64,000 nucleotides of DNA from Polyangia bacterium (GTDB lineage Bacteria > Myxococcota_A > Polyangia > Nannocystales > Nannocystaceae): the NCBI GenBank assembly GCA_030429545.1, contig JAUIFF010000001.1:467599-531598 (forward strand), written 5' to 3'. Below are positions 18,120 to 62,805 of the stretch, piece by piece (position 1 is the first letter of the stretch; every line of letters starts with the position of its first letter). Both the position numbers and the translations under genes were made by a program. The notes under the pieces were generated by a model. That model was not told the DNA's origin, ran no database searches, and was given only the letters and a program-made list of their open reading frames with translations.

Positions 18120-18190
18120 GGCGGCCCCGCGGACCTTGTAATTTGCAGGGAACCGCTCCGCTGCGGAGAAACCTCCCAGGAAGCAGGCTC

Positions 18191-21271: not shown

Positions 21272-22033
21272 ATGCCCTCAGAAAACTCAACACTCATTGC
21301 CCTCGATGAACTCCAACAACTCGAGCAGGAACGGGTTGCCACGGAACATGCACGCCTGCTCGCCCAACAACAGGCCGCCCGTGCAGCCCGCGAACGCGCC
21401 GAGCAACACGCGCGAGAGCTGCAACGCAGGCGCGAGCAGGAGCGACAAATCCGCGAAGCTCAGGAGCTTGCGCAGCGCCAGGCCCGAGCTCGCGAAGAGC
21501 GCCTGCGACTACAAGAAGCCGCGTTACGGCTGCAGGCCGAGCAGCAGCGTTTGCTCGAGCAAGAACGCCTACGGCTCGATGCCAAGATGAAACTCGAAGC
21601 CAAACGCGTCCGACCGGTGGGCTTGTATGCAGTGGTTGCAGGGCTGGTGCTGGCGATGGCCGGGTTGAGTACGGTCGGTATCAAAAAGTTGCAACAGCAA
21701 CGTTCCCAGTTTGCAAGCTCGCAACAGGCCCATGCGCAAGTTGAACGTGAGCGGCAGCAGGAGCTCGCCCAGTTGCGCGACGACTTGGGCAAGTTGAGTG
21801 CCGAGCAGCTTCGCCTTGAAGCACAAAAGCAACAACTCGATACCAAGCTCGCTGAGGTTGAAGATGCCGCGAGTCGGCAGGCCCTCATCGCCGAGAAACA
21901 GGTGATCGACAAAAAACTGCGGGACAACCGGCGCAAGCAGTCGCGCAAGACCCCAAAGTCCAAGCCCAAACCCGAAAAGCCGCGTATCGAAATCGTCACC
22001 AACCCCGAGGATCCCTTGGAGGGGATCAGTTAG
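21272..22033 (+). CDS. coiled-coil single-pass membrane protein (Q/R-rich); paralogue of 20333..21121
   Basis: It starts MPSENSTLIALDELQQLEQER and continues ...RLDAKMKLEAKRVRPVGLYAVV, a TM helix, KLSAEQLRLE and DPLEGIS. The architecture and motifs match the upstream gene. Confidence 0.6.
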   Translation: MPSENSTLIALDELQQLEQERVATEHARLLAQQQAARAARERAEQHARELQRRREQERQIREAQELAQRQARAREERLRLQEAALRLQAEQQRLLEQERLRLDAKMKLEAKRVRPVGLYAVVAGLVLAMAGLSTVGIKKLQQQRSQFASSQQAHAQVERERQQELAQLRDDLGKLSAEQLRLEAQKQQLDTKLAEVEDAASRQALIAEKQVIDKKLRDNRRKQSRKTPKSKPKPEKPRIEIVTNPEDPLEGIS

Positions 22034-22149: not shown

Positions 22150-22221
22150 GGCCTGGTGGCCAAGTGGTAAGGCAGAGCTCTGCAAAAGCTCTATTCGCCG
22201 GTTCGATTCCGGCCCAGGCCT
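22150..22221 (+). tRNA. tRNA-Cys (anticodon GCA)
   Basis: A cloverleaf was folded by eye. The acceptor is GGCCTGG/CCAGGCC, the anticodon stem GAGCT/AGCTC and the loop CTGCAAA (anticodon GCA). The T-arm is GCCGG-TTCGATT-CCGGC. The discriminator is U73, typical of tRNA-Cys. No CCA is encoded. Confidence 0.8.
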
Positions 22222-22223
22222 CT

Positions 22224-22254
22224 GAGCCCCGAGTTTCTCGGGGCTCTTTTTTTG
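22224..22254 (+). terminator. intrinsic terminator after tRNA-Cys
   Basis: gagccccgag-tttc-ctcggggctc followed by ttttttt. Confidence 0.7.
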
Positions 22255-22316
22255 GATATCACCCACATCCTCCCAAGGCCGTCTTCGCGCGAAGTCCCGG
22301 GTTATGCTTGCGCCAG

Positions 22317-34572: not shown

Positions 34573-37392
34573 ATGTACCTCGCTCCGCTCCTGTTGTTGC
34601 TAGGCATCACGCCACCCGACGCCGTTGAGCTTTCGGGCGAGCGTTGGCGCGAAATGGTGGCTGCAACCCAGACCGACGACGGGGTCCATGTGGCCTGGCC
34701 GGCTGCCCGCGATGTAGTGGTAACCCGGGTCGAAGCCGACGGCGGCCTGCTTGTCCGCGCCACGTGGAAATTGCGGGCACTCGGCAAGCGTCCATACGCC
34801 GACCGCCTGCTGGGGCCAGGAGGCCGGGTGTTGTCCGCGACCTTCAACGGCAAGCCGGCGACCTTGGCCAACACAGGCTCGGGCATCTACATTTTTGGCG
34901 AGGTCGATCGAGAGGCCACGGTTGCGCTCGAGGCCTTCGTTGAAGCCGATCCCCTGCGTGAGGCGGTGACCCTCGAGCTACTTCCAGCAGTGCGCGGACA
35001 GGTCCGTGTCGAGGCCGAGGGCTACCGGCCAAAACTCCTTGCTGGTGCATCCAATCGCCCAGCCATTCGGGTTGCCCGCGGGTTTTTGGCCGGTGACGAA
35101 CGCCTATCGCTTGAACTCGAGGCGAACACCAGCCACCAGCCGGCCGACACCCAGGCACTTGCGGTCGCCCGGGTGGGGATGGGATTGACGGTTGGCGACG
35201 CAGCGATCCGCGGACGCGCGCGGGTTTTGTGGGAGGTGCGTCGGGGCGAGCTTTCCCAGATTTCGTTGAACCTGCAAGGACTAGGAGACGACCTCGAGGT
35301 TCGCGGGACTGCGATTCGTGAGACACGGCGCGCGGGGGACCAACTCACAATCGTCCTCCAAGCGCCGAGCCGCGATCGGATTGAAGTTGAGCTGCAGTGG
35401 TCGACGCCGGTTGGCAGTGGTACCGAGACCCGGGCCGAGCTCCCCAAAATTGAACCGACGCAGAGCTACCGCACCCAAACGGCCGTCCAGCTCGCGCGCA
35501 GTGGCGAGGTCGAAGCCCTCCCGCAGCTTCCCGGTTGGCAGCCACAACCAGCCGCCCAATTGCCAGACTGGGCCCAGGGACTTGTCGAGGGTACGCCAAC
35601 GAGTGCCTATACAACATCTGCGCGGAGCGAGGGCCACCTCGACCTCCTCCGGTTTGTGCCCGTCGCCGGACCGCCAGTGGTTGTCGATGTCGCCGATTAC
35701 ACGATTGCCACCTCCCACGAAGGTCGCACGCTGACGACCGCACGCTACGAAATTCGCAACGAGCAGGCGGCGTTTTTAACGGTCACACCGCCGCCGGGAA
35801 GTCGGATTATTGGCGCCCGTGTTGCCGGCGAAACGGCCCTGCCGTCGCGCGGGCCAAACGGTGCCTGGCGGATCCCGCTGCAGCGCTCGGTCGAAACCGT
35901 CGAAGGCCTGTTGAGCTTTGCCGTTGAGGTTTCGCTGCTGGGGGAGACCACCTCCTGGCGCCGACGGGAGAAACGTGAACTCCCACTACCGGTTGTAGAT
36001 GCACCCATCGCCGTCGGTCGGGTCACGCTCTACCTCCCGCCCGGCTATCGCAGCAAACTCGGGCGCGGGGACGCGGGGACAGTTGTCGACTTCGACCGCG
36101 GTGAGGGCATCACCTATGGCTTTGCGGTGGGCGACACCAATGCCGTGCGGGCCGATGCCGTTTACCAACGTGCAGTCCGCAACTGGCTCGAAAACGACTT
36201 TGATGCCGCCCAAAACGACCTCGACGAACTTCGCAACTTAGGGGCGAGCAACGACAACATCGAGCGCTTGCAGTCCAACCTCGATGTGGTCGACGGGCGC
36301 TCGAGCGGCAAGGACAAAACCCTCGAGCGCAGGGTGAAAGAACAGGCGCGGGCACGGGCCCTAGCTGACCAGACCAAGCAGGAGCAGAAGCGACGCAAGG
36401 CCGAGGAGTACTACCGAGCCGGCGACTACGAACAGGCAGGGCGCGAGTACAAGGCCGCCCTAGAACTCGGCAAAAACCTCGAGCGCCTCGAAAACAGCGA
36501 GTCGGTCGAGCAACAGGTCGCCAATGAGTCGCTGCGGCAGCAGCTCGTGGTGACCGAAAAACAGGCCAAACGCACCAAACGGCGACGGCGGTGGGGCAAG
36601 TCGAAGGCCAAGGGCAAGAAGGTGCTAGCGAGCAAGGATGCGGGCCCGAGCTTCAGTGAGCGGACGATGGGCAAGACCCAAGCGGTTGACAAAGTCACCA
36701 CAACAGCGACTTCTACAGCGACGGTAACGGCTACCAAGCCAGACGCGGCAGCAACGAGTTTTGCCGGTGATGAGGCCGGTGGCGAACTCGTGGATGAGCC
36801 GGTCTCCGGAGTCGATGTGGATACAACCATTGCTGTGCGGGACCCGTCGCCCAAACCTCCCGACACTTCGAGTCCGCGCCAATCTGTCGTGAACGGGGCT
36901 GGTCTTGTGCAGGACGAAACCGTCGCCGACGAGCTTACCAAGGTATACGCTGGTACTGCCGGAGGGCAGGCTGGGGCGGGCACGGCCAATCCGGAACCCG
37001 TGAATGCACCCCAGGACGACGCTGAGGCCGAACCTATGGCACCGCCAGAGATGGCACCACCCGCGCCACCTCGGCTCTTGAGCCGCGATGCTCCCGCGAG
37101 TTCGTCGCGGTTTCGCAGGCGAGACCTGCGGAAGTCTCGCAGACGTGGGCGGGGAAGATTTGACCGCAAAAAGCGAGCCAAAAACTCTGACCTCGCCCGC
37201 GGGCCAGCAAAAGCACCCGCCGACCCCAACCAGGCACTCGCCAAACCCCAGGTCACCGCATCGGCGATGTCGGTGGTCATCCCGAGCTCGGGGCAACGCG
37301 TGCGCTACCAAAAAGTGCTGATACAACCTTCTGAGTCGACCACCGTCACCATCGACGCCCGGCTCCCCCTCTTTCGTCGATTTCGGAGATAA
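34573..37392 (+). CDS. large secreted protein of unknown function with a coiled-coil/TPR-like segment and an Ala/Pro-rich tail; paralogue of 37396..39273
   Basis: A signal-like N-terminus. The central region aligns with the next gene (TLTTARYEIRNEQAAFLTVTPPPGSRIIGARVAGE... versus RLTSVKYQIRNNRRQFLRLSLPKGAELWSASVGGR...). A 3-nt gap separates it from the next gene. Confidence 0.6.
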   Translation: MYLAPLLLLLGITPPDAVELSGERWREMVAATQTDDGVHVAWPAARDVVVTRVEADGGLLVRATWKLRALGKRPYADRLLGPGGRVLSATFNGKPATLANTGSGIYIFGEVDREATVALEAFVEADPLREAVTLELLPAVRGQVRVEAEGYRPKLLAGASNRPAIRVARGFLAGDERLSLELEANTSHQPADTQALAVARVGMGLTVGDAAIRGRARVLWEVRRGELSQISLNLQGLGDDLEVRGTAIRETRRAGDQLTIVLQAPSRDRIEVELQWSTPVGSGTETRAELPKIEPTQSYRTQTAVQLARSGEVEALPQLPGWQPQPAAQLPDWAQGLVEGTPTSAYTTSARSEGHLDLLRFVPVAGPPVVVDVADYTIATSHEGRTLTTARYEIRNEQAAFLTVTPPPGSRIIGARVAGETALPSRGPNGAWRIPLQRSVETVEGLLSFAVEVSLLGETTSWRRREKRELPLPVVDAPIAVGRVTLYLPPGYRSKLGRGDAGTVVDFDRGEGITYGFAVGDTNAVRADAVYQRAVRNWLENDFDAAQNDLDELRNLGASNDNIERLQSNLDVVDGRSSGKDKTLERRVKEQARARALADQTKQEQKRRKAEEYYRAGDYEQAGREYKAALELGKNLERLENSESVEQQVANESLRQQLVVTEKQAKRTKRRRRWGKSKAKGKKVLASKDAGPSFSERTMGKTQAVDKVTTTATSTATVTATKPDAAATSFAGDEAGGELVDEPVSGVDVDTTIAVRDPSPKPPDTSSPRQSVVNGAGLVQDETVADELTKVYAGTAGGQAGAGTANPEPVNAPQDDAEAEPMAPPEMAPPAPPRLLSRDAPASSSRFRRRDLRKSRRRGRGRFDRKKRAKNSDLARGPAKAPADPNQALAKPQVTASAMSVVIPSSGQRVRYQKVLIQPSESTTVTIDARLPLFRRFRR

Positions 37393-37395
37393 CCC

Positions 37396-39273
37396 ATGAC
37401 CACGTCCAAACCTCCCATTCGCACGCTTTCGCAACGCCTGCCCGGCCTTGTGGTGGTTGCCCTCCTCGCCCTGTCAACCACCGCCGCGGCTGCGCCCGAG
37501 GACCCGGCCGAGCGCGTGGTGATGAAGCTCGACGAGTTTTTAAAGCTCTACGAGGCCAACAAAAAAGCCGAGTCGCCCGAGCAGACGCCGCGTGACCATG
37601 CCCTGAGTTCGGCCCATTACACCGGGACGGTCGTGCTCGACGAGGGCAAACCGGTGTCGGCGGTTTTTACCGCGAAGATGCGGGTGGAGGTGCTCAAAAA
37701 CAAGGGCTGGGCACGGGTGCCGATTTTGCCGGCGACGGTGGCCCTGCAGTCGGCGACGATCGGCAAGACCGAGGCGCCGATCGTCATCGAAAATGGCTTC
37801 TATACGTTGGTGACCAATCGGCCAGGTGCGGTCGACCTTGACGTTTCGTTTGCCGTTGCTGTGACCACCTCCGAGGGGAAAAGCGAAATCACCTTTGAGC
37901 TGGCACCCTCGGGCGCGACCTCGGCCACGCTGTCGGTACCGGCCAAGGAAAACCTCGACTTCACCGTACCCGGGGCCAAACTCAAGTCCGACCGGGTCGA
38001 GGCCGAAAATCGGGTTGTCGAGGCCACCATGCCGGCAACCGGCTCCCTGTCGATCCAATGGCAACGCGAGATTCCCGAGGCGGCCAAACAGTCGTCGCGG
38101 GTGTACAGCGAAGTCTACACATTGGTCGGGCTCGGCGACGGCCTGATGAAGGCAACTACCACCATTCACAACACCATTTTGTTTCGCGGCGTCGACAAGT
38201 TCAGTGTCAAGCTGCCCGAAAAGATGACCCTGCTCGATGTCTCCGGTGTCGGCATTCGCGATTGGAAGCAGACGCCCGATGGCCACCTCAATGTCGTGCT
38301 CAACTACGCCGCCGAGGGCACCTACACCCTCAAGTTGGAGCTCGAGCGCGTGGTGCCGGAGGGTGAAAAACAGCTCAAGGCACCGATCGTGGTGCCCGAG
38401 GGGGTCGAGCGCTCGAAGGGCTGGGTTGGCGTCGAGTCGCGTGGCAACATCGAAATCGGGGCGGGCGACGTTTCGGGGGCAACCACGGTCGATGTCCGCA
38501 GTTTGCCGGCGGCGATTTTGGGCATTACGCCGCAGCCGGTGTTGCTCGGCTACAAATATTTAGGTGCAGATGCAAAGGTTCCCCTGAAAATTGCCCACCA
38601 CGAAGACGTCGACGTGCTGGTGACCCTGCTCGACCAAACCCGGGCGCGGACCATGTGGACCCGCGAAGGTCGGCGGCTGACCTCGGTCAAATACCAAATT
38701 CGCAACAATCGCCGGCAGTTTCTCCGCCTCTCTCTGCCCAAGGGCGCGGAGTTGTGGAGTGCCTCGGTGGGTGGCCGCGCGGTCCAACCGGCGCGAGCTT
38801 CAGACGGGCGCACCCTGGTGCCACTGGTCCGCTCACAGGCGGCAGGTGGGGCACTGGCGGCGTTTGAAGTCGAGGTTGTCTATGTCGAAAATGGTCAGGC
38901 GGTCTCGGACCGTGGGCGCGGCACATTCAAGGCAACCCTGCCAACCGCCGACGCACCGAGCACATATGTCGCTTGGACCATCTACGCACCCGAGCGCGCC
39001 AAGGTGATCAAGCGTACCGTCGATGGCAACCTTCAGTTGGTCCGCCGCCTGACCAATCCGATTCCCACCGAGGACATGAACTACATCGAAACAGCGACCC
39101 CCGAGGTGCAAAACGTCGCCAATGTACAGGCCGACGACGGTGGGATGGGCGAGGGGGCGGTGCCGGTACCGGTGAGCCTTCCGCTGCAGGGCAAAGAGGT
39201 CAACTTTGAAAAGCTGCTCGCCCTCGACGAAACCCTCGAAGTTGAATTTCGCTTTCGCGGCTTACGCAAGTAG
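37396..39273 (+). CDS. secreted protein of unknown function; paralogue of 34573..37392
   Basis: The signal peptide is LVVVALLALSTTAAAAP. The paralogous block is described under the previous feature. A 2-nt gap separates it from the vWA gene. Confidence 0.6.
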   Translation: MTTSKPPIRTLSQRLPGLVVVALLALSTTAAAAPEDPAERVVMKLDEFLKLYEANKKAESPEQTPRDHALSSAHYTGTVVLDEGKPVSAVFTAKMRVEVLKNKGWARVPILPATVALQSATIGKTEAPIVIENGFYTLVTNRPGAVDLDVSFAVAVTTSEGKSEITFELAPSGATSATLSVPAKENLDFTVPGAKLKSDRVEAENRVVEATMPATGSLSIQWQREIPEAAKQSSRVYSEVYTLVGLGDGLMKATTTIHNTILFRGVDKFSVKLPEKMTLLDVSGVGIRDWKQTPDGHLNVVLNYAAEGTYTLKLELERVVPEGEKQLKAPIVVPEGVERSKGWVGVESRGNIEIGAGDVSGATTVDVRSLPAAILGITPQPVLLGYKYLGADAKVPLKIAHHEDVDVLVTLLDQTRARTMWTREGRRLTSVKYQIRNNRRQFLRLSLPKGAELWSASVGGRAVQPARASDGRTLVPLVRSQAAGGALAAFEVEVVYVENGQAVSDRGRGTFKATLPTADAPSTYVAWTIYAPERAKVIKRTVDGNLQLVRRLTNPIPTEDMNYIETATPEVQNVANVQADDGGMGEGAVPVPVSLPLQGKEVNFEKLLALDETLEVEFRFRGLRK

Positions 39274-39275
39274 GG

Positions 39276-40856
39276 ATGCCAATGAAAACCCATGTATCGG
39301 CATGTATTCGGCGGCAAGTCGGGCGACTGGCCTGCCTGGGGCTGCTGCTGCCGATGTCGGTCGCCGCCCAGCCCGAGGATGACGAAGATGACGAGCTGAA
39401 AATCGTCGACATGGGGATGGAGGTCGAAGCCAGTGTTGAGCCAGCCCCGCGAACCATGGTGTTTGAATTCGATGCGGATATGGCCGCTCCGGAGATGCCA
39501 GATGTTGCGGTCGACACCCCGGGCGTGGCGGTTGGAGGGGCACGCGACGTCGATTTGGTACGCAGCCGGCTCGAATCGGGAAGAATTCCCGAGCCCGCGC
39601 TCTTAGCCAGTGAAGGGTTTTTGGCCGAATACGACCTGCCGCTGACGCCCGCACCGCGGTGCTCGCAAAAACTATGTATCAACACACAAACCGTGGCGAC
39701 GTCGTTGATTGCTCGGCCCGCAGTCCACTACCTGACGCAACTTGGGTTTGGCAGCAACCTCGACATGTCGACGTTTCAGCGCCCGCCGCTTTATGCCGTT
39801 GTCGTGCTTGACCTCTCGCCGTCGATGCGAGGCTCACCATTGGCGACCGCGCAAGCTGCGATTATTGAGGTTGCGAACCAGCTGCGACCCGGCGACCAAC
39901 TGACGATTGTTGGCTTTGGTGTGAAGCCTGTGGTGTTACTGCCGGCCACGCCGATGCCCAATGTTTCGGCCGTTCATCAAGCGGTTGCCTACACGGAGGT
40001 CGGTGGTGGTACAGCACTCGAGCGAGGGCTGCATGCCGGGGTCCAGCTCGCCCGTCGTGCCCCTGCTGGCTATGCCACCCGCGTGTTCTTGATCACCGAC
40101 GATCGACCCACCGTGGGGCGTACGAGCGGCTCACCGTTTGTCAACCTGGCGAAACGGTCAGCTTCGCAGGGAGTTTCACTGACGACCATTGGTGTTGGTC
40201 CGCACTTTCAGGCCCCGCTGGCCCGCGCGTTGGCGGCGGTTCGCGGGGGCAACACCATGTATGTCCGCGATCCGCTCCACGCCAGCTCTCGTATTGCCGA
40301 GGAGTTCCCCGCCCTGGTAACAGAGCTTGCATATGCACTCGAAGTAGTGATTGATCCCGCGCCCGGAATGGCGATTGAAGGGGTGTTTGGTGTGCCTGGG
40401 GACATGTTGGTGCGCGACGGCGACAAGGTATCTTTGCGCGTCGAGACCCTGTTTTTGAGCAAAAAGCGCGGCGCCATTTTTTTGGCCCTGGCACCAAAGG
40501 GGCGGGCCAATCTGCCACGTGGGGCGATGAGAACCGGCGCCCACCTGGGGACCGTGCATATGCAATACCGCGACCTCGACGGCTCGCTCGACACCGGGCG
40601 TTCACAACTGCGAAACATCCATCCCGGGCGCACTGGCAAGGGCCTGCAACGGGGCGCGCTGCTGATTGAGCAAATAGAGGTTCTGCGGGCGATTTCAGAA
40701 CGTTCGACCACCGGTGTCGGTCGCGAGGCGAGGGCGATGGCCGAGAAGTTGAGTGCCCGGTTTACCGACATACATGACCCGGAGCTCACGCCCGCAGTCG
40801 AGCTGACCCAAATGTTGAACGATGTTGTTGGCCGGTCGACCACTGCCCCGCGCTAG
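39276..40856 (+). CDS. von Willebrand factor type A (vWA) domain protein
   Basis: A signal peptide is present. The MIDAS motif is DLSPSMRG, with ...TDD... and TIGVG vWA strands. Confidence 0.7.
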   Translation: MPMKTHVSACIRRQVGRLACLGLLLPMSVAAQPEDDEDDELKIVDMGMEVEASVEPAPRTMVFEFDADMAAPEMPDVAVDTPGVAVGGARDVDLVRSRLESGRIPEPALLASEGFLAEYDLPLTPAPRCSQKLCINTQTVATSLIARPAVHYLTQLGFGSNLDMSTFQRPPLYAVVVLDLSPSMRGSPLATAQAAIIEVANQLRPGDQLTIVGFGVKPVVLLPATPMPNVSAVHQAVAYTEVGGGTALERGLHAGVQLARRAPAGYATRVFLITDDRPTVGRTSGSPFVNLAKRSASQGVSLTTIGVGPHFQAPLARALAAVRGGNTMYVRDPLHASSRIAEEFPALVTELAYALEVVIDPAPGMAIEGVFGVPGDMLVRDGDKVSLRVETLFLSKKRGAIFLALAPKGRANLPRGAMRTGAHLGTVHMQYRDLDGSLDTGRSQLRNIHPGRTGKGLQRGALLIEQIEVLRAISERSTTGVGREARAMAEKLSARFTDIHDPELTPAVELTQMLNDVVGRSTTAPR

Positions 40857-52645: not shown

Positions 52646-55600
52646 TCACAGGCCGGCAAACCTGCGAAATCTGGCGATCCCGGCGAGTGAGATGTCCTCG
52701 ATAATGCAGTAAATCGCCGGCAAAAATACGAGGGTGACAAGCGTGCTGGTGACGAGGCCGCCGGAAATGATGATGGCGATGGCGTGATAGTAGACACCCG
52801 CGAGGGTGGGGTGGTGCAGCAGCATCGGGAGCAGCCCGAGGACCGTGGTTGTGGCCGTCATCAGGATGGGCCGCAGGCGGTCTCGACCGGCACGTTCGAG
52901 GGCCTCGGCCCGGCTCATGCCGGCGTTGCGCAGCTGCAGTACCCGGTCGATCAACATAATGCCGTTGTTGACGACGATCCCGATCAGGATAAACAGCCCG
53001 ATCATGGCTACGGTGTCGACTGTTGTCCCCGTCAACCACATGGCCCAGGGCGCACCAAAACACCCGAGCAGGCAGGTGGCGAGGATGGCAAAGGGTTGCA
53101 GGAAGCTCTCGAACAACGAGGCCATCACTGCATATACAAGCAGCATGCACATGCCGAGGTTCACGAGCATGGCGTTTTGGCCCTTGCGGCGTTGCCTCCA
53201 CGGGGTCGGGTCGCCCGAGCGATAGCCCGGGGGAAACGTGAACGCGGCCATGGCCTTGTCGACCTGCTCGCGATTGACATCGGCTTCGGCGCTGAAGAAC
53301 CGGATTTTGACGGTGACTTGGGTTTCCCGGTCGACCCGCTGAATGAAGAACGGGCTGCGGGCAGTTTCAAAATGGGCGAGGCTACCGAGCGTGACATTGC
53401 CGCCCTCGGGGAGGTTGACCCGGAGGTCCCGGAGGTTTTGCAGCTCGGTGGCCTGGCCCTCATCGAGCGCATCTCGCCGGCTTACAGTACCCGCGCTCAG
53501 GCGCAGCTCGATCTCGCCGTCGGTGGTGTGAACTTGTCCCAGGGACATGCCCTGAAAGGCAGTCGAAACAGTTTGCGCGATCACATCGCTGCGTAGGCCG
53601 AGCCTGCGCAACCGGCTCGGGTCGAGCTTGATGTGGAGCTCCTGGCTGCCTTCGTCGGCCGGGCCGGTCACGGTGTCGTAACCTCCGGCTTCGGGGTTGT
53701 CGACCGAGCCGCGGGGCAGGTTTTTGCGCAGGTGTTCGGCCACCCGGTTGGCGAGGGCCATGAGCTCGCCCATGTCTTCGCCCATGATCGCGATTTGAAC
53801 TTCCTTGCGGTCGCGCGAACGGTTGCGTCGCCAACGGTCCTCACCCACGCGGTAACGCACCCCGGCCTGCTCGGGGAGGGCCTGCTTGACGGCATCTTTG
53901 AGGGCTTCGACCTCGGCTTCACTTTGGGCCGGGGTTTCGGGATGGGCCGAGCAGTGCGCCCACCAGTCGCTGTAACTACAACTGACGTGTTCGAGGCCAA
54001 GCGCGTCGCGCTTTTGCAGCAGGGCCTGCTCGACGCGTTCGAGGTGGATTTTGATCCGCCGATGGCCAGGGCTGCCGACAAACTCAAAGCCTATCGGGAT
54101 GTCGTCGGGTTGTTCTTCGACATCGCCCAAGTTGTAGTTGGCCTGCATGCCCGGGACGATGGCGGAGCCGGCAATGATCAGCGCGAGCAGCAGGGTGGTC
54201 CGGCGAAATCGCAGGCTCACCCGGATCAGGCGGGCGTAGGCGTTGGACAGGATGTCGAGCAGCGGGGTGGGGCGAGGTTTGCTCGGGCGCCGCAGGACCC
54301 ACCGCATACACAGCGGGACCGCGGTTTGGCTGATCACCAAACTGCACAGCAAGACCGTGGCAAACGTGGCTCCTAGTGGCCGCAAAAACGCACTCATCGG
54401 ATCGGCTGGGTCGCCGAACACGAGCGGCAAAAACACGATCACGCTCGAGAGGGTCGAGGCGATGGTGGCGAGTCCGACTTCGCGGCTGCCAAACAGGATG
54501 GCGCGGTGGTTGGGCTCACCGGCACGGGCGTGCTGCTCGATCGCTTCGACGATTACGACTGCGTTGTCGATCAGCATCCCAACCCCGAGCACGAGGCCGA
54601 GCAAGACGATGCAGTTGAGCTCCTCGCCGCGCAGCAACAACACGCCACAGGTGGCCAGGATCGTCAGGGGAATGCAGGCGGCAGCGACCAGGGTGATGAG
54701 CAGGCGCCGGAGAAACAAAAACAGGACGATGACGCCGAGGATGCCCCCGTAGATGCCGGTGTTGCGCAGGTCGCGAAGGGTGTCGGTAATGACTTCGCCC
54801 TGGTCAAAAAAGATCGCGGTCTCGATCCCGGCGAGGGCCGGGTCGTTGCCGAGTTCGGCCAGGACTTCGCGCAGGGCTTCGCTGACTTCGACCGGGCTCG
54901 AGCCGGCCCGTCCGTAGACATCGAGGTTGATTCCACCCTTGCCGTCGAGGCGGCGAAAGGCCCGAACCTCGCGGGGGTGGATACTCAGGTCAGCGATGTC
55001 GCGAAGCCGCGCTGGCGCCGGGGTGCTAGTTGTGGTTGTCGGTGTAGCTGCAAGTGTCTCGGCAGGAGGTGCAACACCCGAGGCCGTGCCGACCGTCGCA
55101 TCGGGGCTTGCGGTTGGCACATCCGCACCGCGGTTGAGCGGGAGCTCGGCGTAGGTCGAAAGTTCGGTCGCCAGCGCGGGGCTGCGCAGGCCCGGGGTGT
55201 CGCGCGAGGATTGGAGCACGCCGAGGCTGCGATTGCGCCGGGCATCGGTCAAAACCCCACTGACGTCGGTGGGGGCGATGCCGTTGCGGACCAGGGCTTC
55301 GAGGTCGAGCGCGATCTCAAATTCGTTGGATTCGGCGCCGTTAAACTCGACGCGGCCGACACCTTCAATGCGCTCGAGCGGGCGCACGATGTGCCGCAGG
55401 ATGTCGTTGTAGCGGGCCGAGAGGTCTTGGTTGCTGGCGATCCGCAGCGACATCACGGGCGCGTCGTCGTCGCGGGCGCTGTCGATTTCGATGGTTCGCA
55501 GGTTGTCGGGGAGATCCGGGCGCAGGCGATCGATGCGTTCACGGACTTCGACCTTGCGAGCATCGATGTCGGTCCCGGCGGCGAACTCCAAGTTGACGCG

Positions 55601-55921
55601 AACCCCCCAGGCGCCACTGCCCACCTGAATCCGCGAAAGTCCTCGCAGGCCCGCAACCTGCTCCTCGATCGGTCGAATGATATCGCGCTCGAGGATTTCG
55701 GGACTTGTCCGGGGCAAGCGAAAGCGAATCGAAACCCGGGGTGAGCTGCGACTTGGCATGAACGCCAGCGGGAGCTCGAACGTCGCGAGCAGTCCCAACA
55801 AGAAGACGGCGATCAGCAACATCCCGACCATCACGGGCCGGGACAGGGCGAGGTCGGCGAGACTCCAGTTGTGGGTCGCCGCCCGCTTGGCATCGGGCTG
55901 CACGTCGAGAGGGTATCCCAT
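52646..55921 (-). CDS. RND efflux transporter permease (AcrB/HAE family)
   Basis: A 1091-aa protein with 12 predicted TM helices, large periplasmic loops and an AcrB-like N-terminus (SRPVMVGMLLIAVFLLG). Confidence 0.85.
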   Translation of the reverse strand: MGYPLDVQPDAKRAATHNWSLADLALSRPVMVGMLLIAVFLLGLLATFELPLAFMPSRSSPRVSIRFRLPRTSPEILERDIIRPIEEQVAGLRGLSRIQVGSGAWGVRVNLEFAAGTDIDARKVEVRERIDRLRPDLPDNLRTIEIDSARDDDAPVMSLRIASNQDLSARYNDILRHIVRPLERIEGVGRVEFNGAESNEFEIALDLEALVRNGIAPTDVSGVLTDARRNRSLGVLQSSRDTPGLRSPALATELSTYAELPLNRGADVPTASPDATVGTASGVAPPAETLAATPTTTTSTPAPARLRDIADLSIHPREVRAFRRLDGKGGINLDVYGRAGSSPVEVSEALREVLAELGNDPALAGIETAIFFDQGEVITDTLRDLRNTGIYGGILGVIVLFLFLRRLLITLVAAACIPLTILATCGVLLLRGEELNCIVLLGLVLGVGMLIDNAVVIVEAIEQHARAGEPNHRAILFGSREVGLATIASTLSSVIVFLPLVFGDPADPMSAFLRPLGATFATVLLCSLVISQTAVPLCMRWVLRRPSKPRPTPLLDILSNAYARLIRVSLRFRRTTLLLALIIAGSAIVPGMQANYNLGDVEEQPDDIPIGFEFVGSPGHRRIKIHLERVEQALLQKRDALGLEHVSCSYSDWWAHCSAHPETPAQSEAEVEALKDAVKQALPEQAGVRYRVGEDRWRRNRSRDRKEVQIAIMGEDMGELMALANRVAEHLRKNLPRGSVDNPEAGGYDTVTGPADEGSQELHIKLDPSRLRRLGLRSDVIAQTVSTAFQGMSLGQVHTTDGEIELRLSAGTVSRRDALDEGQATELQNLRDLRVNLPEGGNVTLGSLAHFETARSPFFIQRVDRETQVTVKIRFFSAEADVNREQVDKAMAAFTFPPGYRSGDPTPWRQRRKGQNAMLVNLGMCMLLVYAVMASLFESFLQPFAILATCLLGCFGAPWAMWLTGTTVDTVAMIGLFILIGIVVNNGIMLIDRVLQLRNAGMSRAEALERAGRDRLRPILMTATTTVLGLLPMLLHHPTLAGVYYHAIAIIISGGLVTSTLVTLVFLPAIYCIIEDISLAGIARFRRFAGL

Positions 55922-56024
55922 GGTGGACGTACTGTGTTTAACAGACTCGCGCCCGAGGTTTGTTGACCCCGGGCGGTTGTCGGAACGTGTCGACCCATGA
56001 ACTGGTACGTTTGGGCCGGCTTCG

Positions 56025-59000
56025 ATGGGCGACGGCGTTCAGGATTTTGATTCGAAGGGCCCCGAAAGTTCGTGGGGCGCGATCGCTGGCGTCGAGCTGC
56101 GAAAAGTGCTGTGGCGTGGCTCGCGGTGGCGGGTGTTCGATGGAGCTCGCGGGCTTTTGCGAGTGGCGGTGACGGTCGGCGAGGTGCTCAGCGACGAGGA
56201 TGTCCGAACGTTTCATCGCGCGGTGGCAAATCGAGCCCGTGTCGTCCATCCGGGGCTTTCGCGGGTACTTGCCTGCGGCGTTGAAGACGGATTGTTCTAC
56301 CAGGTTTCGGCCTTGCCCGACGGCCCGCGACTGAGCCAACGGGTGCGTTCGGGCGCGATGCTCGAGCCCGAGATTCGCGATGTCATTCGCCAGCTCGCCG
56401 GGGCGTTACACGCCGCCCATCGACTCGGTGTCATCGTCGGCCAGGTGACACCAGACACGCTGTTGCTGACCCCCTCGGGCATCAAGATCTGCGACATCTT
56501 TCCGTTGCTGCATCAACAATCGGGTCCGTTTACAGCGCCCGAGGTGCTCGGCGATGCCCCGGACATGCCCGATGAGCGCGTCGACATCTTTGCGGTTGGC
56601 GCAATCGCGTGGTTTGCCGTCACCGGGCGTCCGCCGCCGGCCTCGGGGAGCCGTGATAGCCGGCGTTTGCACCCCGATACCTACGGTATTTCCCGCGGTT
56701 TGGCCTGGCTTATCGGACATCTCCTCGAAGATGATCCGCGGCGCCGATTTCAGAACATGGTCGAGGTGCTCGATGCCCTCGACCAGGTTGAAGTTGCCGA
56801 CGAACAGGAGCCCGAAGTTCGGCGCAGCGAAAAAAAGGCCCAGGTCGCCGCGGGGTTTGACATCCCGTTGGTCGGGCGAGAGCAGACGCTCGCCGCCCTC
56901 GAACGCTTTCGCGTGGCCGCGCGCGAGGGCAACGGCTGTTCGGTCGTGGTCACCGGGCCTCCCGGAGCCGGGCGAAGTCGGTTGCTCTACGAGATGGCCC
57001 GTAGGTCGCGTGTGGCCGGGGACACCGTACTGTTCGCACGCTGCGAGGCGGACGATCACACTCCGTTGGGGGTGTGCCGCGAACTGGTCGAGGCCTACCT
57101 CGCCCAGGCGACCCGACATGAAGGATTTGGCGAAAGCTTACGGGCAGCAACGGTTGGTATCGATGACCTCATCCGTGGGCTGAGCCCCGAACTCGACCGG
57201 TTTTTGCCCGAACTTGAAAGCGAGGCCGGCCTCCACGAACACCATGCGTTTCACGGGGCGCTGGCCAGTTTTCTGATTCGCCTGGGTTCGGTGCGTGAGG
57301 AGCTGGTGTCTGAGCGTCTACAGGGCGTCGTACATGGCGGTGCGGTGTCGCAGGTGCGCACCGGGTCGTTGGTGGTGGTGATCGACGATGCCCAGTGGCT
57401 CGACCTCGCCAGTATCCAAGTGTTGCGCCATCTCGCGGTCGAGTTGCAGTCCAACCCGGTGTTGCTGCTGCTCGCCGTGCGTGAGCCACCCAGCGACGTG
57501 CTGTGGCAAGAGCAACTCGCACCTGCACCCGTGCAGACACTCGCACTCAGCCCGATGACCGCGACCGAGGTGGGTGCCCTGTGTCGGGCGATGGTTTGGT
57601 ACCCGTTGGCACCCCGGATCGTCGCGCTGATCATCGCCCGGACCGGAGGTCACGCCCGCTCCGTCGTCGCGTTTGTCCAGGTGATGCTCGACGAGGGGGT
57701 GATGCTGCCCAACTGGGGCGAGTGGGATGTCGACATGGGCCGCTTTGGCGCGCTCGCTTTGCCCGGGAGTGCCGACGCGTTGATCAGTCGCCGGGTCGCC
57801 TCGCTCGAACCACAGATCCGCGAAGTCATGGCCACAGCCGCCTGCATCGGCCGTCGGATCGATGTGGATATTTTGTCGTCGCTGTGTGGCAGCGAGCTGG
57901 TCCAGGCCGCCCTGCAATCATGTATAAGCAATCGAATTGTGGGCCGGCGGGGTCGCCTCGTCGCGTTTTTACACCAACAGGTGGTCGACATTTTACGGGC
58001 CTCGTTGCAACCGGGGGAACGTGCACGGATCCATGGGCTGATTGCCCGCCAGCTGCGGTTGGCCGGTCTCGATCGCCCGGAGAATCTACATCGGGCGGCC
58101 CATCACGCCTGGCAGTCGGCGCCGGCGACCAAGGAGCCTGAGTTTGTCATCGAGCTCCTGCTGCAGGCTGGACGCTCGGTCAGTCGTTACGCGCCCGAGG
58201 CCACGCGGATGTACCTCCAGTCGGCCGCGGAGTTGTTGGAGGGCATCGGCAAACAGTTGACGCGGCAGGATGCTCTTGCGCTCGGTCTTGCCTATGCAAA
58301 TTGTGGGGAGCTCGAACAGGCCTGTCAGGCGATCGAGTCGGCCCTTGCGCGGGCGACCTCACCCATGCAGCGTGCCAAGTTGCGGGTTGAGCTCGGGCGC
58401 ATTCACCTGCTCGAACTCGATGCTGACAAAATTCGGCGAGAGGTCGAGCAGGGGTTGGCCGAACTCAAGCTGCCGCCCCTGCGCGGGCACTTTACGCGGC
58501 GGGCCCGGGCCCTGCTCGCCCGTACGTTACGTCCCCGGTCGCGCCGTCCCCACGACGCCGTCCCAGAGCTCGACCGGGGAAAGTTGTTGCTGCAACTTTT
58601 AGAGCTCGGGGGACAGTTCGCCTACCTCCAGGGCAAGATCGTCCTTGGCATGCAACTCGCCTCGCGGGCCTTCCACGAGGCCCAACGCTTGCACCCGTGT
58701 GCGGAGCAGGCCAAGGCGATCATGTCCTACAGTGTTGGCTTGGCGCTGACGGGGCGTCGCGCGGGATTTGTGTCGGAGTCCGAGCGAGCCCTCGAGATCG
58801 CCAGGCGGGTCGGGGGCCAGGGGCTAGAGGCCACGCTGATGGCGGCGCGGGCAATGGGCCACGAAATCCTCGGTGACATCCAAAAAAACGAGCTTGATCT
58901 GCGGGCCGCGCTTTCGCGTGGACGCCTGCGGTTTCCGGTCGAGATGTACGCGAGTTGTGCCCTGACGTTGGCGCGAAATCTCGACCAACGGGGCTATCCC

Positions 59001-61379
59001 AACGAGGCGACGACGTGGGTGTCCCAGGCATGCTTGCGTCTACAACTAGCGACCCGTGACGGGCTGCCACACTTTCACAGCGTACTGGCCTATGTCGCGT
59101 GTCTCGATGCCGCCTGCGGGCGCCGAGAACAGGCCCAGGAGTCCCTGGCCTTTGCCCGGCAAGCACTCAAGGGAGTGACCGCACGGGCCGATGCTGCCCG
59201 CAACTACCTGGCTGCATGTGACCTGAGAGTCCTGTTTGAGCTGCGGCGCTTCGATGCCGAGTTTGAGCGGGCGGCCGAGCAATTCCTGCTCGATGTGACT
59301 GCCCCCGACCCGGCGATGCAGTTTACCCACGACGGCTTTATCTTGCTGGCCCACTACGAGCTCGAACGCCTCGTGGCACAGCGGCGAATGGGTCAGGCCC
59401 ACCCCGATCCCGATGTCACAAACTTGAAGACCGCGATCAGTCGCTTGCACCCGTTGCGGCATATTCCACTGATCTCCCTGCAGATCGCGTTTGTCGAGGC
59501 GACGTTGCGCTGGCTTCGCGGGGAGACAGCGTCGGCCCACCGGCGCTGGAGTGACACCGCCAAGCGGGCCCATCAACTCGACTGCCCCCGGGTGCTCGCG
59601 GCGATTTCAAGGTTTCGTGCCCATGCCCTAATCGAAGAAGGTGCCCGTGAGGCAGGTCTGCGCGAGGCCAAAAATGCCGCACAGATAGCGGGAGAGCAGG
59701 GGTTGAGCAATCTCGAGGCTTGGATCCGCGAGGACTTCCAACTCGCCGATGTGACCCGCCGACCGGATTCTGCAGACACGCTTGTCAGTGTGGGGACCGG
59801 GGTTGAGGTGACCTCCCACCGGATTCGCCAACACTTCGATACCCTGCTGCAAATCCGTATGAGTGCACTGCGTCAGACCTCGGCAGCGGGGCAGGCCAAG
59901 GCGATTTTGCACGAGCTCATGCTGGTGTTGGGTGCGTCGCGCGGGTGGATGATTGCGTATACAGATAAATACCCCGAGTACGAGGTGGTGTACGGATGCA
60001 CCTCGGAGGGCCGCGAACTTTTAGAGCTCGATGCCGCCAGCCGCCACGTGGTTGAACAGACCCGCGATTCTGGGGAGTTGAGTATTGGCAATGGACCCGC
60101 CGGCGAGGAAGTCGAAGCCACGGCCTCGCACCTGTGGTCCACGACCTCGCGGAGTTTGATGGCCGCGCCGATTCGCCTTGGCGACAGCGATGTCGGCATT
60201 GTGTGCCTCGACAACAGACTGTCTGGGAGCACGTTTTCGCGGGCCGATGAGCAGATGTTGCAGGCGATGGCCGGGCATATCGCGCTCGCTGGTGAACTAC
60301 TGGCGGCTCGTCTCAAGGCCCAGTCGGAGGGCACCGGAGAGGTCTTGTCGGGGGTGTTGGAGCAGGCCTGCCAGGTGCTTTCGTGTGGGGTGCTGGCACT
60401 CGCACGCAACGGAAGTCTGGTGCATGTCAGCGACGCCGTCGCCGAGCTGACGGCGGCCTGGGCCGAACCCGCGGTGTGGTGGCGCTCGATCACCGAAACC
60501 GGTGTGATCGACCCGACCTGGGTAGGCTTGGGTGATGGCGCCCACCATGTGGTCAGTGTTGAACTCGTCACGCCGGGGGGCGGGGTGCGGGTGTTCGAGC
60601 TGTCGTTCACCGGCGAGGTTCACCCGCTTGTCGGTTTTGGTGATAGCCAGGTTGTACTGGTTGCAGATACAACGAGAGGAAGCAGGACGGAGCTCGAGTT
60701 GCGGGCCAAACGCAATGCGGTGGAAGCCGAACGCGAGCTTGCGGCGGCCGAGTTGCGCAGCCGCAAGTCCCTACGTGAACAGCTCGTAGCCCTGCTGACG
60801 ACCGCCACCGATGAACTCACAACCATCGACGACCCCCGCGAACGCGAGGCTCGCCTCGCCGGTCTGCTCGATGTTGTCAAACGCGTGTCGAGGGTTGCCC
60901 GTATCGAAAGTGGCGAGTTGCCCCTGCCGGCCAATCCGATCGAACTCACGGGCCTCGTCAATCAGATCTACAGCGACGTCTCTGGCGAGCTCTCAGCCCG
61001 CGGCGGCGACCTATTGATCGACCTACGGACCCGCGATGCGATCGCTTCAGATCGGGTGTTGTTGCGCCAGATCCTCGGAGAGCTCGTTGGCTTTATCGCC
61101 GGGGGCTGCGAGCGACCAGATGTCCTGCTCGAGGTTTGGATCGATCGCCATGGTGCCCACCCGGTGTGTGTCTTTGAAATCTCGCGGCCCCAGCAAACCG
61201 AAGTGTCCGGGGCGATCCGCGACGAGATCGGTCAGTTGGCGTTGTCGGTGACACAGCATGCGGTCGGCTTGCTGCGGGGAACGTTGCAGCTACATGCAAA
61301 TGACGAGGCGCGACGGGTGTTGACGTTTACCTTGCCCGTTGGCGACGCACCCGATGATATCGCCATGATTCGCCGGTGA
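56025..61379 (+). CDS. 1784-aa multidomain signalling protein: pseudokinase-like N-terminus, AAA/STAND-like NTPase, TPR/helical region, GAF, and a C-terminal histidine-kinase-like region lacking the H-box His
   Basis: The kinase-like N-lobe has HRLGVIVGQVTPDTLL in place of HRDxKxxN and IKICDIFPL in place of DFG. The P-loop is VVVTGPPGAGRSRLL (Walker A Lys replaced by Arg), with Walker B VVVIDDAQWLD. A GAF-like segment (IVCLDNRLSGSTFSRADEQMLQAMAGHIALA) follows. The HisKA-like region is LVALLTTATDELTTI (His replaced by Asp), followed by an HATPase_c-like tail without clear N, G1 or G2 boxes. Confidence 0.7.
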   Translation: MGDGVQDFDSKGPESSWGAIAGVELRKVLWRGSRWRVFDGARGLLRVAVTVGEVLSDEDVRTFHRAVANRARVVHPGLSRVLACGVEDGLFYQVSALPDGPRLSQRVRSGAMLEPEIRDVIRQLAGALHAAHRLGVIVGQVTPDTLLLTPSGIKICDIFPLLHQQSGPFTAPEVLGDAPDMPDERVDIFAVGAIAWFAVTGRPPPASGSRDSRRLHPDTYGISRGLAWLIGHLLEDDPRRRFQNMVEVLDALDQVEVADEQEPEVRRSEKKAQVAAGFDIPLVGREQTLAALERFRVAAREGNGCSVVVTGPPGAGRSRLLYEMARRSRVAGDTVLFARCEADDHTPLGVCRELVEAYLAQATRHEGFGESLRAATVGIDDLIRGLSPELDRFLPELESEAGLHEHHAFHGALASFLIRLGSVREELVSERLQGVVHGGAVSQVRTGSLVVVIDDAQWLDLASIQVLRHLAVELQSNPVLLLLAVREPPSDVLWQEQLAPAPVQTLALSPMTATEVGALCRAMVWYPLAPRIVALIIARTGGHARSVVAFVQVMLDEGVMLPNWGEWDVDMGRFGALALPGSADALISRRVASLEPQIREVMATAACIGRRIDVDILSSLCGSELVQAALQSCISNRIVGRRGRLVAFLHQQVVDILRASLQPGERARIHGLIARQLRLAGLDRPENLHRAAHHAWQSAPATKEPEFVIELLLQAGRSVSRYAPEATRMYLQSAAELLEGIGKQLTRQDALALGLAYANCGELEQACQAIESALARATSPMQRAKLRVELGRIHLLELDADKIRREVEQGLAELKLPPLRGHFTRRARALLARTLRPRSRRPHDAVPELDRGKLLLQLLELGGQFAYLQGKIVLGMQLASRAFHEAQRLHPCAEQAKAIMSYSVGLALTGRRAGFVSESERALEIARRVGGQGLEATLMAARAMGHEILGDIQKNELDLRAALSRGRLRFPVEMYASCALTLARNLDQRGYPNEATTWVSQACLRLQLATRDGLPHFHSVLAYVACLDAACGRREQAQESLAFARQALKGVTARADAARNYLAACDLRVLFELRRFDAEFERAAEQFLLDVTAPDPAMQFTHDGFILLAHYELERLVAQRRMGQAHPDPDVTNLKTAISRLHPLRHIPLISLQIAFVEATLRWLRGETASAHRRWSDTAKRAHQLDCPRVLAAISRFRAHALIEEGAREAGLREAKNAAQIAGEQGLSNLEAWIREDFQLADVTRRPDSADTLVSVGTGVEVTSHRIRQHFDTLLQIRMSALRQTSAAGQAKAILHELMLVLGASRGWMIAYTDKYPEYEVVYGCTSEGRELLELDAASRHVVEQTRDSGELSIGNGPAGEEVEATASHLWSTTSRSLMAAPIRLGDSDVGIVCLDNRLSGSTFSRADEQMLQAMAGHIALAGELLAARLKAQSEGTGEVLSGVLEQACQVLSCGVLALARNGSLVHVSDAVAELTAAWAEPAVWWRSITETGVIDPTWVGLGDGAHHVVSVELVTPGGGVRVFELSFTGEVHPLVGFGDSQVVLVADTTRGSRTELELRAKRNAVEAERELAAAELRSRKSLREQLVALLTTATDELTTIDDPREREARLAGLLDVVKRVSRVARIESGELPLPANPIELTGLVNQIYSDVSGELSARGGDLLIDLRTRDAIASDRVLLRQILGELVGFIAGGCERPDVLLEVWIDRHGAHPVCVFEISRPQQTEVSGAIRDEIGQLALSVTQHAVGLLRGTLQLHANDEARRVLTFTLPVGDAPDDIAMIRR

Positions 61380-61465
61380 CCTACGGGATGCGCACAAGCG
61401 GGCCAGAACCAATAAACAAACGGCCCGACTCGTGTGAGCCGGACCGTGGCGTGACCCGAAGTACG

Positions 61466-61738
61466 TTAGTTGCCAGCCTGTGCGCGGTTGACCGCAACGG
61501 TCAGGCGCGAGCTGTAACGGGCTCCGGTGTTACGGTGCAAAACACCCTTGGAAACAGCCTTGCCGATCGCCGTGAGGGCGAGGGGAAGGTTATGAACTGC
61601 GGCCTCGACATCTTTGCTGGCGAGTGCATAGCGGACGCGTTTGATATGCGTGCGCATGCGGCCGAGGTGGACGAGGTTACGTGCGCGCCGTTTGATGCGC
61701 TGACGATTGCGTTTTGCTGCCTGTTTGTGATTCGCCAC
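61466..61738 (-). CDS. rpsT: 30S ribosomal protein S20
   Basis: MANHKQAAKRNRQRIKRRARN...: a 90-aa basic protein matching the S20 N-terminus. Confidence 0.85.
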   Translation of the reverse strand: MANHKQAAKRNRQRIKRRARNLVHLGRMRTHIKRVRYALASKDVEAAVHNLPLALTAIGKAVSKGVLHRNTGARYSSRLTVAVNRAQAGN

Positions 61739-61908
61739 GGGGCTCCTACTTTCGGGTCACGTGTTTGGAGGGCGAGTATTTGCTTTGATCACGTGGTCTT
61801 GTCAAGTGGCCGGAGACCGTTATGCGTTGTTGACGCAGTTTGCGACCGTGAGATATCCGCGCTCCGAGCAGTTGGCCGAACAAACGCGCACACCGTACCC
61901 TCCCGGGA

Positions 61909-62805
61909 ATGACGTCAGCAGCCCGGATCGCAGTGCTTGTCGCACTGGTTGCCAACGCCGGATGTGTGTTTGTGCCGCCACCTCCGTTGCCGGAGGAGGT
62001 CGCAGCAGAAGAAGCAGCCCGCAAGGAGCGGATCGCTGCCCTTCGCGGAGGTCAGCCGGCGACACCGCCCGGGTCGTCTGAAGAGGCCGAGACAGGCGGG
62101 TCTGAGGCTGAGCTCACGTTCAAGCCGGGCGATCCCATCCCCGGGGGCATGACCCCCGAGCAAATCGCGGACTTTCGCGCCGCCCAGGGCGACCCGGTTG
62201 CAGGTGACTTCACGCTCGAGCAAGCGCTGGCCGGGATCGAAGGTTCCGGTGAGTTGTGGGCCCTCATTCGCACCTCTCGAGGGACGTTGCAGTGTCAACT
62301 GTTTCCCGAGCAAGCGCCCCTGACTGTGGCGAACTTTGTTGGGCTCGCCCGCGGGATCCGGCCGTTTCGCGACCCCGCCGTCCCCAACAGTCCCGACGCG
62401 CCGAACACCACGTGGGTCAAGCGCCCGTACTACGACGGGACCTCCTTTCACCGGGTCATTCCCGGGTTCATGATCCAGGGCGGCGATCCGACCGGCACCG
62501 GCGTTGGCGGGCCGGGCTATGTCATTGTCGACGAGTTTAGTCCCGAGCTCATCCACGAGCGCCCTGGGATGTTGAGCATGGCCAACCGCAACGAGCCCAA
62601 CACCGGCGGAGCCCAGTTTTTTGTCACGCTCAACCCAACCCCGCATCTCGACGGGGTCCACACTGTGTTCGGAGCCTGCGACGACGACTCGACCGCACTC
62701 GCCGACGACATCTCGCTCGTGCCCCGCGACGAGCGAAACAAGCCAGACGAGCCCGAGATCATCCAGACGATCGGGTTTGAGTTTCGTCCGGCCAAAAGCT
62801 CCTAG
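61909..62805 (+). CDS. cyclophilin-type peptidyl-prolyl cis-trans isomerase lipoprotein
   Basis: It has a lipobox (ANAGC). The cyclophilin motifs are [25 protein letters not shown] and SMAN...TGGAQFFVT. Confidence 0.8.

Follow-up and report, generated by a model that had tools for sequence, protein, structure and literature searches.

A 1784-residue STAND signaling protein of a Nannocystaceae myxobacterium in which both the Ser/Thr kinase and the histidine kinase modules lack catalytic residues

The gene described here belongs to a Polyangia bacterium of the Nannocystaceae (GenBank assembly GCA_030429545.1) and lies at positions 56025–61379 on the forward strand of the window, by which we mean the whole stretch of 64,000 nucleotides that was analyzed (contig JAUIFF010000001.1, positions 467,599 to 531,598). 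It encodes a 1784-residue signaling protein arranged, from the N to the C terminus, as a pseudokinase, an AAA_16/STAND NTPase, a helical region, a GAF domain, a PAS-like domain, a DHp-like hairpin and a CA-like domain. Both the kinase module and the histidine kinase module are without the residues for catalysis and ATP positioning, and the folds of both are preserved under constraint. On balance, we think it probable that this is a soluble member of a dual-protein-kinase STAND family in which both phosphotransfer modules have become pseudoenzymes in this lineage, and which signals via binding partners. Judged from its sequence, the protein most likely works through partner binding and not through phosphorylation. 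We regard it as an unusual variant within known protein families and not as a system of a new kind. An earlier sequence-only reading of this DNA had proposed that the kinase, the P-loop NTPase and the histidine kinase are all inactivated; its open reading frame (ORF) is real and all the peptides it quoted are present, and its individual assignments are taken up below.

The reading frame of 1784 codons plus a stop is complete and without interruption (ORF list and translation), and its GC content at third versus second codon positions (GC3 0.73 vs GC2 0.47) is typical of coding sequence, in a genome of 62% GC. A Pfam scan of the whole protein matched Pkinase (residues 71–242), AAA_16 (281–481) and GAF (1292–1422). 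No transmembrane segment is predicted, the hydropathy maximum being 1.51 over 19 residues, and the protein is predicted to be soluble and cytoplasmic. Four relatives define its clade. P0001 is a 99% identical protein from an independent assembly, P0002 is a full-length ortholog of 1794 residues and 69% identity from the Nannocystaceae (Myxococcota), and P0121 (54% identity) and P0122 (59%) are C-terminal fragments of further clade members. The catalytic substitutions of the 1784-residue protein all recur in P0002. Scanning genome contigs with the alignment of the window protein and P0002 returned only the already-known contig, and the same scan of metagenome contigs found no further relatives; a homolog search with residues 1–345 for N-terminal fragments of a third lineage gave two distant kinases only, and also missed the self-hits.

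The kinase-like N terminus (residues about 18–262; 56076–56810, forward strand) has a Hanks-type fold. The Pfam Pkinase family (PF00069) scored 29.1 bits in the whole protein, below the cut-off of 31.7, and 35.3 bits, above it, on residues 1–280 alone. The AlphaFold2 (AF2) model of residues 1–560 has a predicted local distance difference test score (pLDDT) of 84.1, and Foldseek matched its kinase part to Staphylococcus aureus PknB (4eqm) with a TM of 0.78 and a root-mean-square deviation of 3.0 Å. The kinase motifs were aligned in four ways, with Mycobacterium tuberculosis PknA, with four active full-length relatives (MAFFT), with a profile built from 20 active relatives and as part of an alignment of 32 sequences, and the assignments were identical in all four. 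The Gly-rich loop GxGxxG is lost and replaced by W30-R-G-S-R-W35, the β3 Lys by T50 (in VAVTV) and the αC Glu by A66. HRDxKxxN aligns to V138-G139-Q140-V-T142-P-D-T145, with the catalytic Asp lost to Q140 and the catalytic-loop Lys and Asn lost to T142 and T145. By comparison, the metal-binding Asp of the DFG motif is kept as D157 of D157-I-F, which pairs within ‘CDIF’ with ‘TDFG’ and ‘VDLG’ in the alignments. The activation loop is shortened by about 15 residues, and the APE motif is kept.

The residues T50, A66, Q140, T145 and WRGSRW are the same in P0002, and the close active relatives all keep HRDxKPxN as well as the P-loop GxxGxGK[ST]. As modeled, the N terminus is a folded pseudokinase. 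The 35.3-bit match and the alignments bear out the sequence-only reading of a kinase-like N terminus with substituted catalytic residues, with two corrections. The HRD Asp is indeed lost, but the ‘HRL’ that had been taken for the replaced HRDLKPxN motif is misregistered and lies five residues upstream, at the end of helix E; likewise the DFG motif does read DIF, but its metal-binding Asp is retained. The losses of the β3 Lys, the αC Glu and the Gly-rich loop had gone unremarked. Elsewhere among the homologs, and independently, P0018 from the Myxococcales is also a pseudokinase, with HGS for HRD, GFG for DFG and a normal Lys P-loop.

At the other end of the protein, no Pfam family, HisKA and HATPase_c included, matched residues 1430–1784 at E ≤ 10, and homology was therefore shown by way of intermediate sequences and of predicted structures. 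HMMER, run exhaustively with residues 1431–1784, returned 48 proteins. Two of them are the clade fragments P0121 and P0122. The others are genuine histidine kinases that carry the HisKA and HATPase_c domains of Pfam, the best eight at E values of 4.5e-13 to 1.8e-10 (library-wide), and some of them (P0129 and P0130) have the whole kinase-AAA_16-GAF architecture. In addition, a profile of seven genuine PAS-HisKA-HATPase_c kinases scored the C terminus of the window protein at 100 bits, in an alignment that ends at the G1 box. The AF2 model of residues 1431–1784 (pLDDT 87.7) comprises a PAS domain, a long helical hairpin and an α/β domain. Its top Foldseek matches were WalK, the YF1 LOV kinase, HK853, GacS, RetS, NifL and the histidine kinase-related domain of phytochromes A and B, among which RetS, NifL and the plant phytochrome domain are degenerate or non-autophosphorylating.

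The PAS-like sensor domain (residues 1439–1549; 60339–60671, forward strand) carries the motifs ELTAAWAEPAVWW, RVFELSFTGEVH and VVLVADTTR, and is modeled as a PAS-like α/β fold at a pLDDT of about 90. More than 40 genuine histidine kinases contain the same domain, with the signatures ELTAAWAxPxxWW, RVFELxFTGxxH (FELxFTG) and VVLVxDxTR; this Pfam-unmatched domain may represent an undescribed PAS subfamily. It is followed by the DHp-like helical hairpin (residues 1550–1628; 60672–60908, forward strand), formed by helices 120–170 and 174–198 of the AF2 model, in which there is not a single His. Both the phmmer pairwise alignments and the alignment to the seven-kinase profile placed the H-box ‘mSHELRTPLnaI’ on RSRKSLREQLVAL, and the phospho-acceptor His position on K1581 (60765–60767, forward strand) in RSRKSLREQL. 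The residue at this position is Lys in the window protein and in P0002, and Leu in P0121, as read from the P0121 sequence.

The degenerate CA domain (HATPase_c-like; residues 1637–1771; 60933–61337, forward strand) has lost its nucleotide-binding boxes. The N-box Asn is replaced by F1690 in the window protein and by Phe likewise in P0002 and P0121, the G1 box DxGxG by SRPQQT and the G2 box GxGLGL by IGQLAL, and the ATP lid is shortened by about 16 residues. P0002 and P0121 are the same as the window protein in the missing N, G1 and G2 boxes and in the shortened lid. A motif table of about 50 histidine kinase relatives matched by the histidine kinase profile shows that nearly all keep the four histidine kinase motifs and that the four members of the present clade keep none. 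The profile alignment and this table agree with the earlier description of a HATPase_c-like tail without N, G1 and G2 boxes. Two other relatives show independent, partial loss: in P0148 the N, G1 and G2 boxes are degenerate and the His is kept, and P0149 is without the H-box His.

These losses stand out against the HstK-type ‘dual protein kinases’, which combine a Hanks Ser/Thr kinase with GAF, HisKA and HATPase_c domains (Phalip et al. 2001; reviewed in PMC1262709). The window protein has the same module order on one polypeptide, with kinase, histidine kinase and GAF domain. The architecture of the family is a Hanks kinase, an AAA_16/COG3899 NTPase, a helical arm, GAF, PAS, DHp and CA, and the nearest full-length relatives (P0004, P0008, P0010, P0129 and P0130) share it, with AAA_16 between kinase and GAF. 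These relatives keep the VAIK Lys, HRD, DFG or DLG, GxxGxGK[ST], the H-box His and the N, G1 and G2 boxes, whereas the present clade retains of all these motifs only the DFG Asp.

Selection was estimated pairwise by the Nei–Gojobori method between the window gene and P0002, with dS saturated (about 1.4), so that all dN/dS values are approximate. The ratio is 0.17 for the whole gene, 0.10 for the pseudokinase and for the GAF domain, 0.13 for the PAS-like domain, 0.14 for the CA-like domain and 0.20 for the helical arm, and reaches 0.25, the highest among the folded domains, in the AAA_16 region. The underlying proportions (pN 0.20 vs pS 0.64) are unambiguous despite the saturation. By these estimates, the dead kinase domains are under purifying selection, with dN/dS of 0.10–0.14.

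Between the two kinase modules lies the AAA_16/STAND nucleotide-binding domain (residues 281–560; 56865–57704, forward strand), which Pfam AAA_16 matches with 68.7 bits, the cut-off being 32.6. The sequence-only reading was right in finding Arg in place of the Walker A Lys in GPPGAGRS: R317 of G311-PPGAG-R317-S318 (56955–56978, forward strand) occupies this position in the AAA_16 domain, and the Walker A motif of P0002 is GPPGAGRT, likewise with Arg. The Walker B motif VVVIDD (D454, D455) and the sensor-1 Arg R486 fit the family consensus and are invariant between the window protein and P0002. The AF2 model places a strand at 305–311, a helix at 317–330 and further strands at 449–454 and 479–486. 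R317 is the sole lesion in the nucleotide site of the protein.

Our survey of P-loops found GxxGxGK[ST] in 110 of 120 homologs and Arg in eight. The neighbor-joining tree of the NOD nests the present clade among Lys-bearing proteins of kinase-AAA_16-GAF-output architecture, and groups the Arg carriers P0021, P0026, P0054 and P0060, which have lost the sensor-1 Arg, in a separate clade. Because the Arg carriers fall in separate clades of this tree, the Lys-to-Arg change in Walker A arose at least twice in the NTPase family. An Arg Walker A (GxxGxGRS) also occurs in P0070 and P0074, and these two as well as P0021, P0026, P0054 and P0060 keep the HRD Asp. With Walker B and the sensor-1 Arg both in place, and with Arg P-loops found repeatedly in the family, the NTPase module is not, on sequence grounds, callable as dead. 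The earlier claim that all three modules are dead is therefore overstated for the NTPase, with R317 its only change and Arg P-loops in 8 of 120 homologs and at least two clades. Judged by P-loop enzymes in general, the site of this protein would be expected to be competent in binding and slow in hydrolysis. A literature search on natural Walker A Arg variants in STAND proteins yielded nothing specific.

One could instead suppose that the Walker A Arg abolishes nucleotide binding and that the protein is a fully inert scaffold, a static platform regulated solely by GAF and PAS ligands. R317 is kept as Arg in P0002, Walker A Lys-to-Arg changes are generally known as loss-of-function in many P-loop NTPases including NLRs, and the AAA_16 region has the highest dN/dS among the folded domains, all of which fit such a scaffold. 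We nevertheless consider it unlikely, since D454, D455 and R486 are invariant between the orthologs, which is unexpected for an unused site, and the Arg-P-loop clade of P0021, P0026, P0054 and P0060, with its lost sensor-1 Arg, is what further decay looks like. Moreover, no substitution of Lys could be more conservative than Arg. The proposal of a scaffold or pseudoenzyme, already made from the sequence alone, stands for both kinase modules, in which several residues are gone and the changes are conserved at 69% and about 54% identity, but is not established for the NTPase.

Less probable still is that the pseudokinase is a non-canonical enzyme or nucleotide sensor, binding ATP via D157 and the Arg-rich G-loop (R31, R34 and R36) and either catalyzing an atypical reaction, like SelO and SidJ, or serving as a conformational switch, as proposed for ULK4 and the DLHK family. 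The retention of the DFG Asp and of APE agrees with this view, as does the dN/dS of 0.10, one of the two lowest in the protein and essentially equal to that of GAF. Metal-independent, Arg-mediated ATP binding has been proposed for DLHK, and some CP1 pseudokinases may bind ATP (PMC12599244). However, five separate catalytic or ATP-positioning elements are gone, Trp stands in place of the G-loop glycines and no compensating residues were identified; a conserved protein-binding surface explains the strong constraint equally well.

The sequence-only reading had also equated the H-box His with the Asp of TATDELTTI, and suggested that this His-to-Asp change, or an acidic residue in general (Asp or Glu), could act as a phosphomimetic or alternative phospho-acceptor. 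We find this very improbable, and the alignments contradict it. The Asp in question, D1596 (60810–60812, forward strand), lies 15 residues downstream of K1581, on which the phmmer and profile alignments put the His. It aligns instead to the downstream ‘GYxE’ segment, and the AF2 model puts it five residues ahead of the loop of the DHp hairpin. The corresponding residue is Glu in P0002, so that two of the three sequences are acidic here, but it is Lys in P0121 (read from the P0121 sequence), and D1596 is accordingly not a conserved position. The proposal arose from a misregistered alignment: Lys or Leu occupies the true His position, and ATP could anyway not come from the CA domain. Taken over all modules, correct gapping restored no His, Lys or catalytic-loop Asp, but it did shift the registers of HRD and the H-box.

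That the gene is a decaying pseudogene or an assembly or sequencing artifact is hardly credible: nothing more than the number of substitutions speaks for it, whereas 1784 uninterrupted codons, a 99% twin from an independent assembly, the low pN relative to pS and the high-confidence AF2 models of both ends speak against it, and decay and sequencing error are excluded because the substitutions are shared with the 69% identical ortholog under purifying selection.

We return to the probable reading of a pair of pseudoenzymes that signals through partners, for which the remaining domains suggest how the protein may work. The helical, TPR-like arm (residues 561–1270; 57705–59834, forward strand) has weak Pfam matches to TPR_7 and RPN7, and takes part in alignments that span about 80% of the length of family members. 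The GAF domain (residues 1292–1422; 59898–60290, forward strand), present as the sequence-only reading had stated, scores 29.1 bits against a Pfam cut-off of 22.4. Ser/Thr or His autophosphorylation would be beyond such a protein, which would act as a ligand-regulated scaffold or allosteric regulator, with GAF and PAS taking small-molecule inputs. The STAND core would still bind nucleotide, because Walker B and sensor-1 are intact, and serve as a nucleotide-dependent oligomerization switch; hydrolysis is probably slower with the Arg P-loop, and the switch would then favor a long-lived bound state and oligomerization. The surfaces of DHp/CA and of the pseudokinase might dock a response regulator, another histidine kinase or an active Ser/Thr kinase, by analogy with DivL sensing DivK~P or RetS blocking GacS.

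Several points weigh against this interpretation. With D157 and its Arg-rich G-loop, the pseudokinase could still bind nucleotide in a non-canonical way, and in Walker A Lys-to-Arg mutants the binding of nucleotide is often lost along with its hydrolysis. The clade consists of three or four known lineages, two of them represented by C-terminal fragments only, and the conservation of the kinase and P-loop substitutions rests on the single ortholog P0002 and the 99% twin; the saturation of dS limits the selection estimates as well. No response regulator or kinase gene adjoins the gene in either genome (the window or the P0002 contig), and partner docking is pure inference because no partner gene is linked. 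The support for the pseudoenzyme interpretation comes from sequence and predicted structure.

A more elaborate form of the same idea, to which we give little weight, is a ‘triple-variant’ hub in which the STAND switch would be held nucleotide-bound by the Walker A Arg, while the pseudo-Hanks and pseudo-histidine kinases would each dock a different network (Ser/Thr and two-component, respectively) and couple the two non-catalytically. In the strongest version of this hub, the pseudokinase itself, still binding nucleotide non-canonically by means of D157 and its Arg-rich G-loop, would be a second nucleotide sensor or an atypical enzyme.

The protein also resembles the CP1 bSTK family, in which a cytosolic kinase or pseudokinase is fused to a COG3899-type predicted ATPase, often with a GAF (FhlA-like) or PAS domain (PMC12599244; preprint 10.1101/2025.01.12.632604). 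About 40% of CP1 members are pseudokinases with variable motif loss; they are without experimental study and have been described mainly from cyanobacteria and proteobacteria (PMC12599244). The Pkinase, AAA_16, GAF and PAS-like domains and the lack of a transmembrane segment in the window protein are matched by this family description, but these papers do not describe members in which a fused histidine-kinase module or the P-loop has degenerated at the same time.

For the C-terminal half, the closest parallels are pseudo-histidine kinases, among them DivL, a repurposed pseudo-histidine kinase of Caulobacter (PMC4211667), and PsmA, a histidine pseudokinase of Streptomyces (PMC12963549). Together with Pseudomonas RetS, NifL and the histidine kinase-related domain of phytochromes, these proteins share with the window protein a DHp–CA fold and the lack of His autophosphorylation, and their signaling goes through binding to a response regulator or to a second kinase. 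At the His site DivL has a Tyr, and its CA domain is retained; RetS has retained a His. By contrast, the window protein has Lys or, in its clade, Leu at this site, and its ATP lid is deleted. None of these five has a pseudokinase or a STAND NTPase. With respect to the P-loop, there are plant sensor or helper NLRs, STAND NTPases with non-canonical P-loops, that function P-loop-independently. They resemble the present protein in having a STAND core with a substituted yet conserved Walker A Lys position, but they belong to unrelated lineages with other effector domains, and the window protein keeps Walker B and sensor-1, so that nucleotide binding may persist. In the papers that the literature search covered, we found no conserved protein described as having lost both kinase activities simultaneously while also carrying an Arg P-loop.

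The gene stands among housekeeping genes (lipA, rpsT and PPIase) and not in a defense island. An anti-phage defense role was rejected, PADLOC having given generic kinase-domain matches only (PD-T4-6, MkoA and mad6; residues 29–291). Upstream, and divergent as the sequence-only reading had noted, lies a solitary RND permease gene (52646–55921, reverse strand; 1091 residues, AcrB-type) directly followed by the lipoyl synthase gene. The intergenic region between the permease gene and the 1784-residue gene is 103 bp long (55922–56024), and a consensus scan of it found no sigma-70-like promoter. No gene for a membrane-fusion (MFP) or outer-membrane (OMF) partner adjoins the permease gene, and the Nannocystaceae contig L001 shows this arrangement too. 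A functional tie to the RND gene was nonetheless rejected: the entire block of lipA, RND, the gene itself, rpsT, PPIase (cyclophilin) and YkuD is syntenic between the window and the Nannocystaceae contig of P0002, two close relatives, which makes adjacency uninformative.

The real downstream neighbor is rpsT (ribosomal protein S20; 61466–61738, reverse strand), convergent with the 1784-residue gene and separated from it by a terminator-like hairpin with a 12-bp stem that follows rpsT (61420–61447). A 178-residue ORF (61376–61912, forward strand) overlaps the stop codon and was considered as a possible partner through translational coupling. Its one Pfam hit (E=0.063) is at chance level and not meaningful, and the ORF was rejected as spurious because rpsT occupies the reverse strand there and likewise at the orthologous locus; the 1784-residue gene is therefore monocistronic.

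Other features of the window lie farther away. An intact Ser/Thr kinase gene (22164–23966) is 32 kb distant, and nothing ties this kinase to the 1784-residue gene. It neighbors two tandem paralogs of ~255 residues (20333–21121 and 21272–22033, forward strand), which are rich in Glu, Arg, Lys and Gln, have no Pfam match and look like coiled coils with a central hydrophobic segment; they are the source of a strong AT-skew peak at 18–22 kb, and a zinc-ribbon/GYF_2 protein (18104–20002) flanks them as well. At 34573–40856 (forward strand), two large consecutive ORFs of 939 and 625 residues without a Pfam match are followed, tightly spaced, by genes for a VWA-domain protein and a DUF3095 protein, and may form an uncharacterized operon.

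Bacterial pseudokinases and pseudo-histidine kinases have each been recognized, and very few are characterized. The practical value of the present case is limited, as it concerns a small clade and an uncultured Nannocystaceae myxobacterium. For the family, the protein offers a natural test case for the effect of a Walker A Lys-to-Arg change in a STAND switch. It shows that a dual kinase can have its two modules disabled jointly and still retain them under purifying selection, and this joint, retained loss argues for a purely non-catalytic role of a very large (about 190 kDa) signaling protein.

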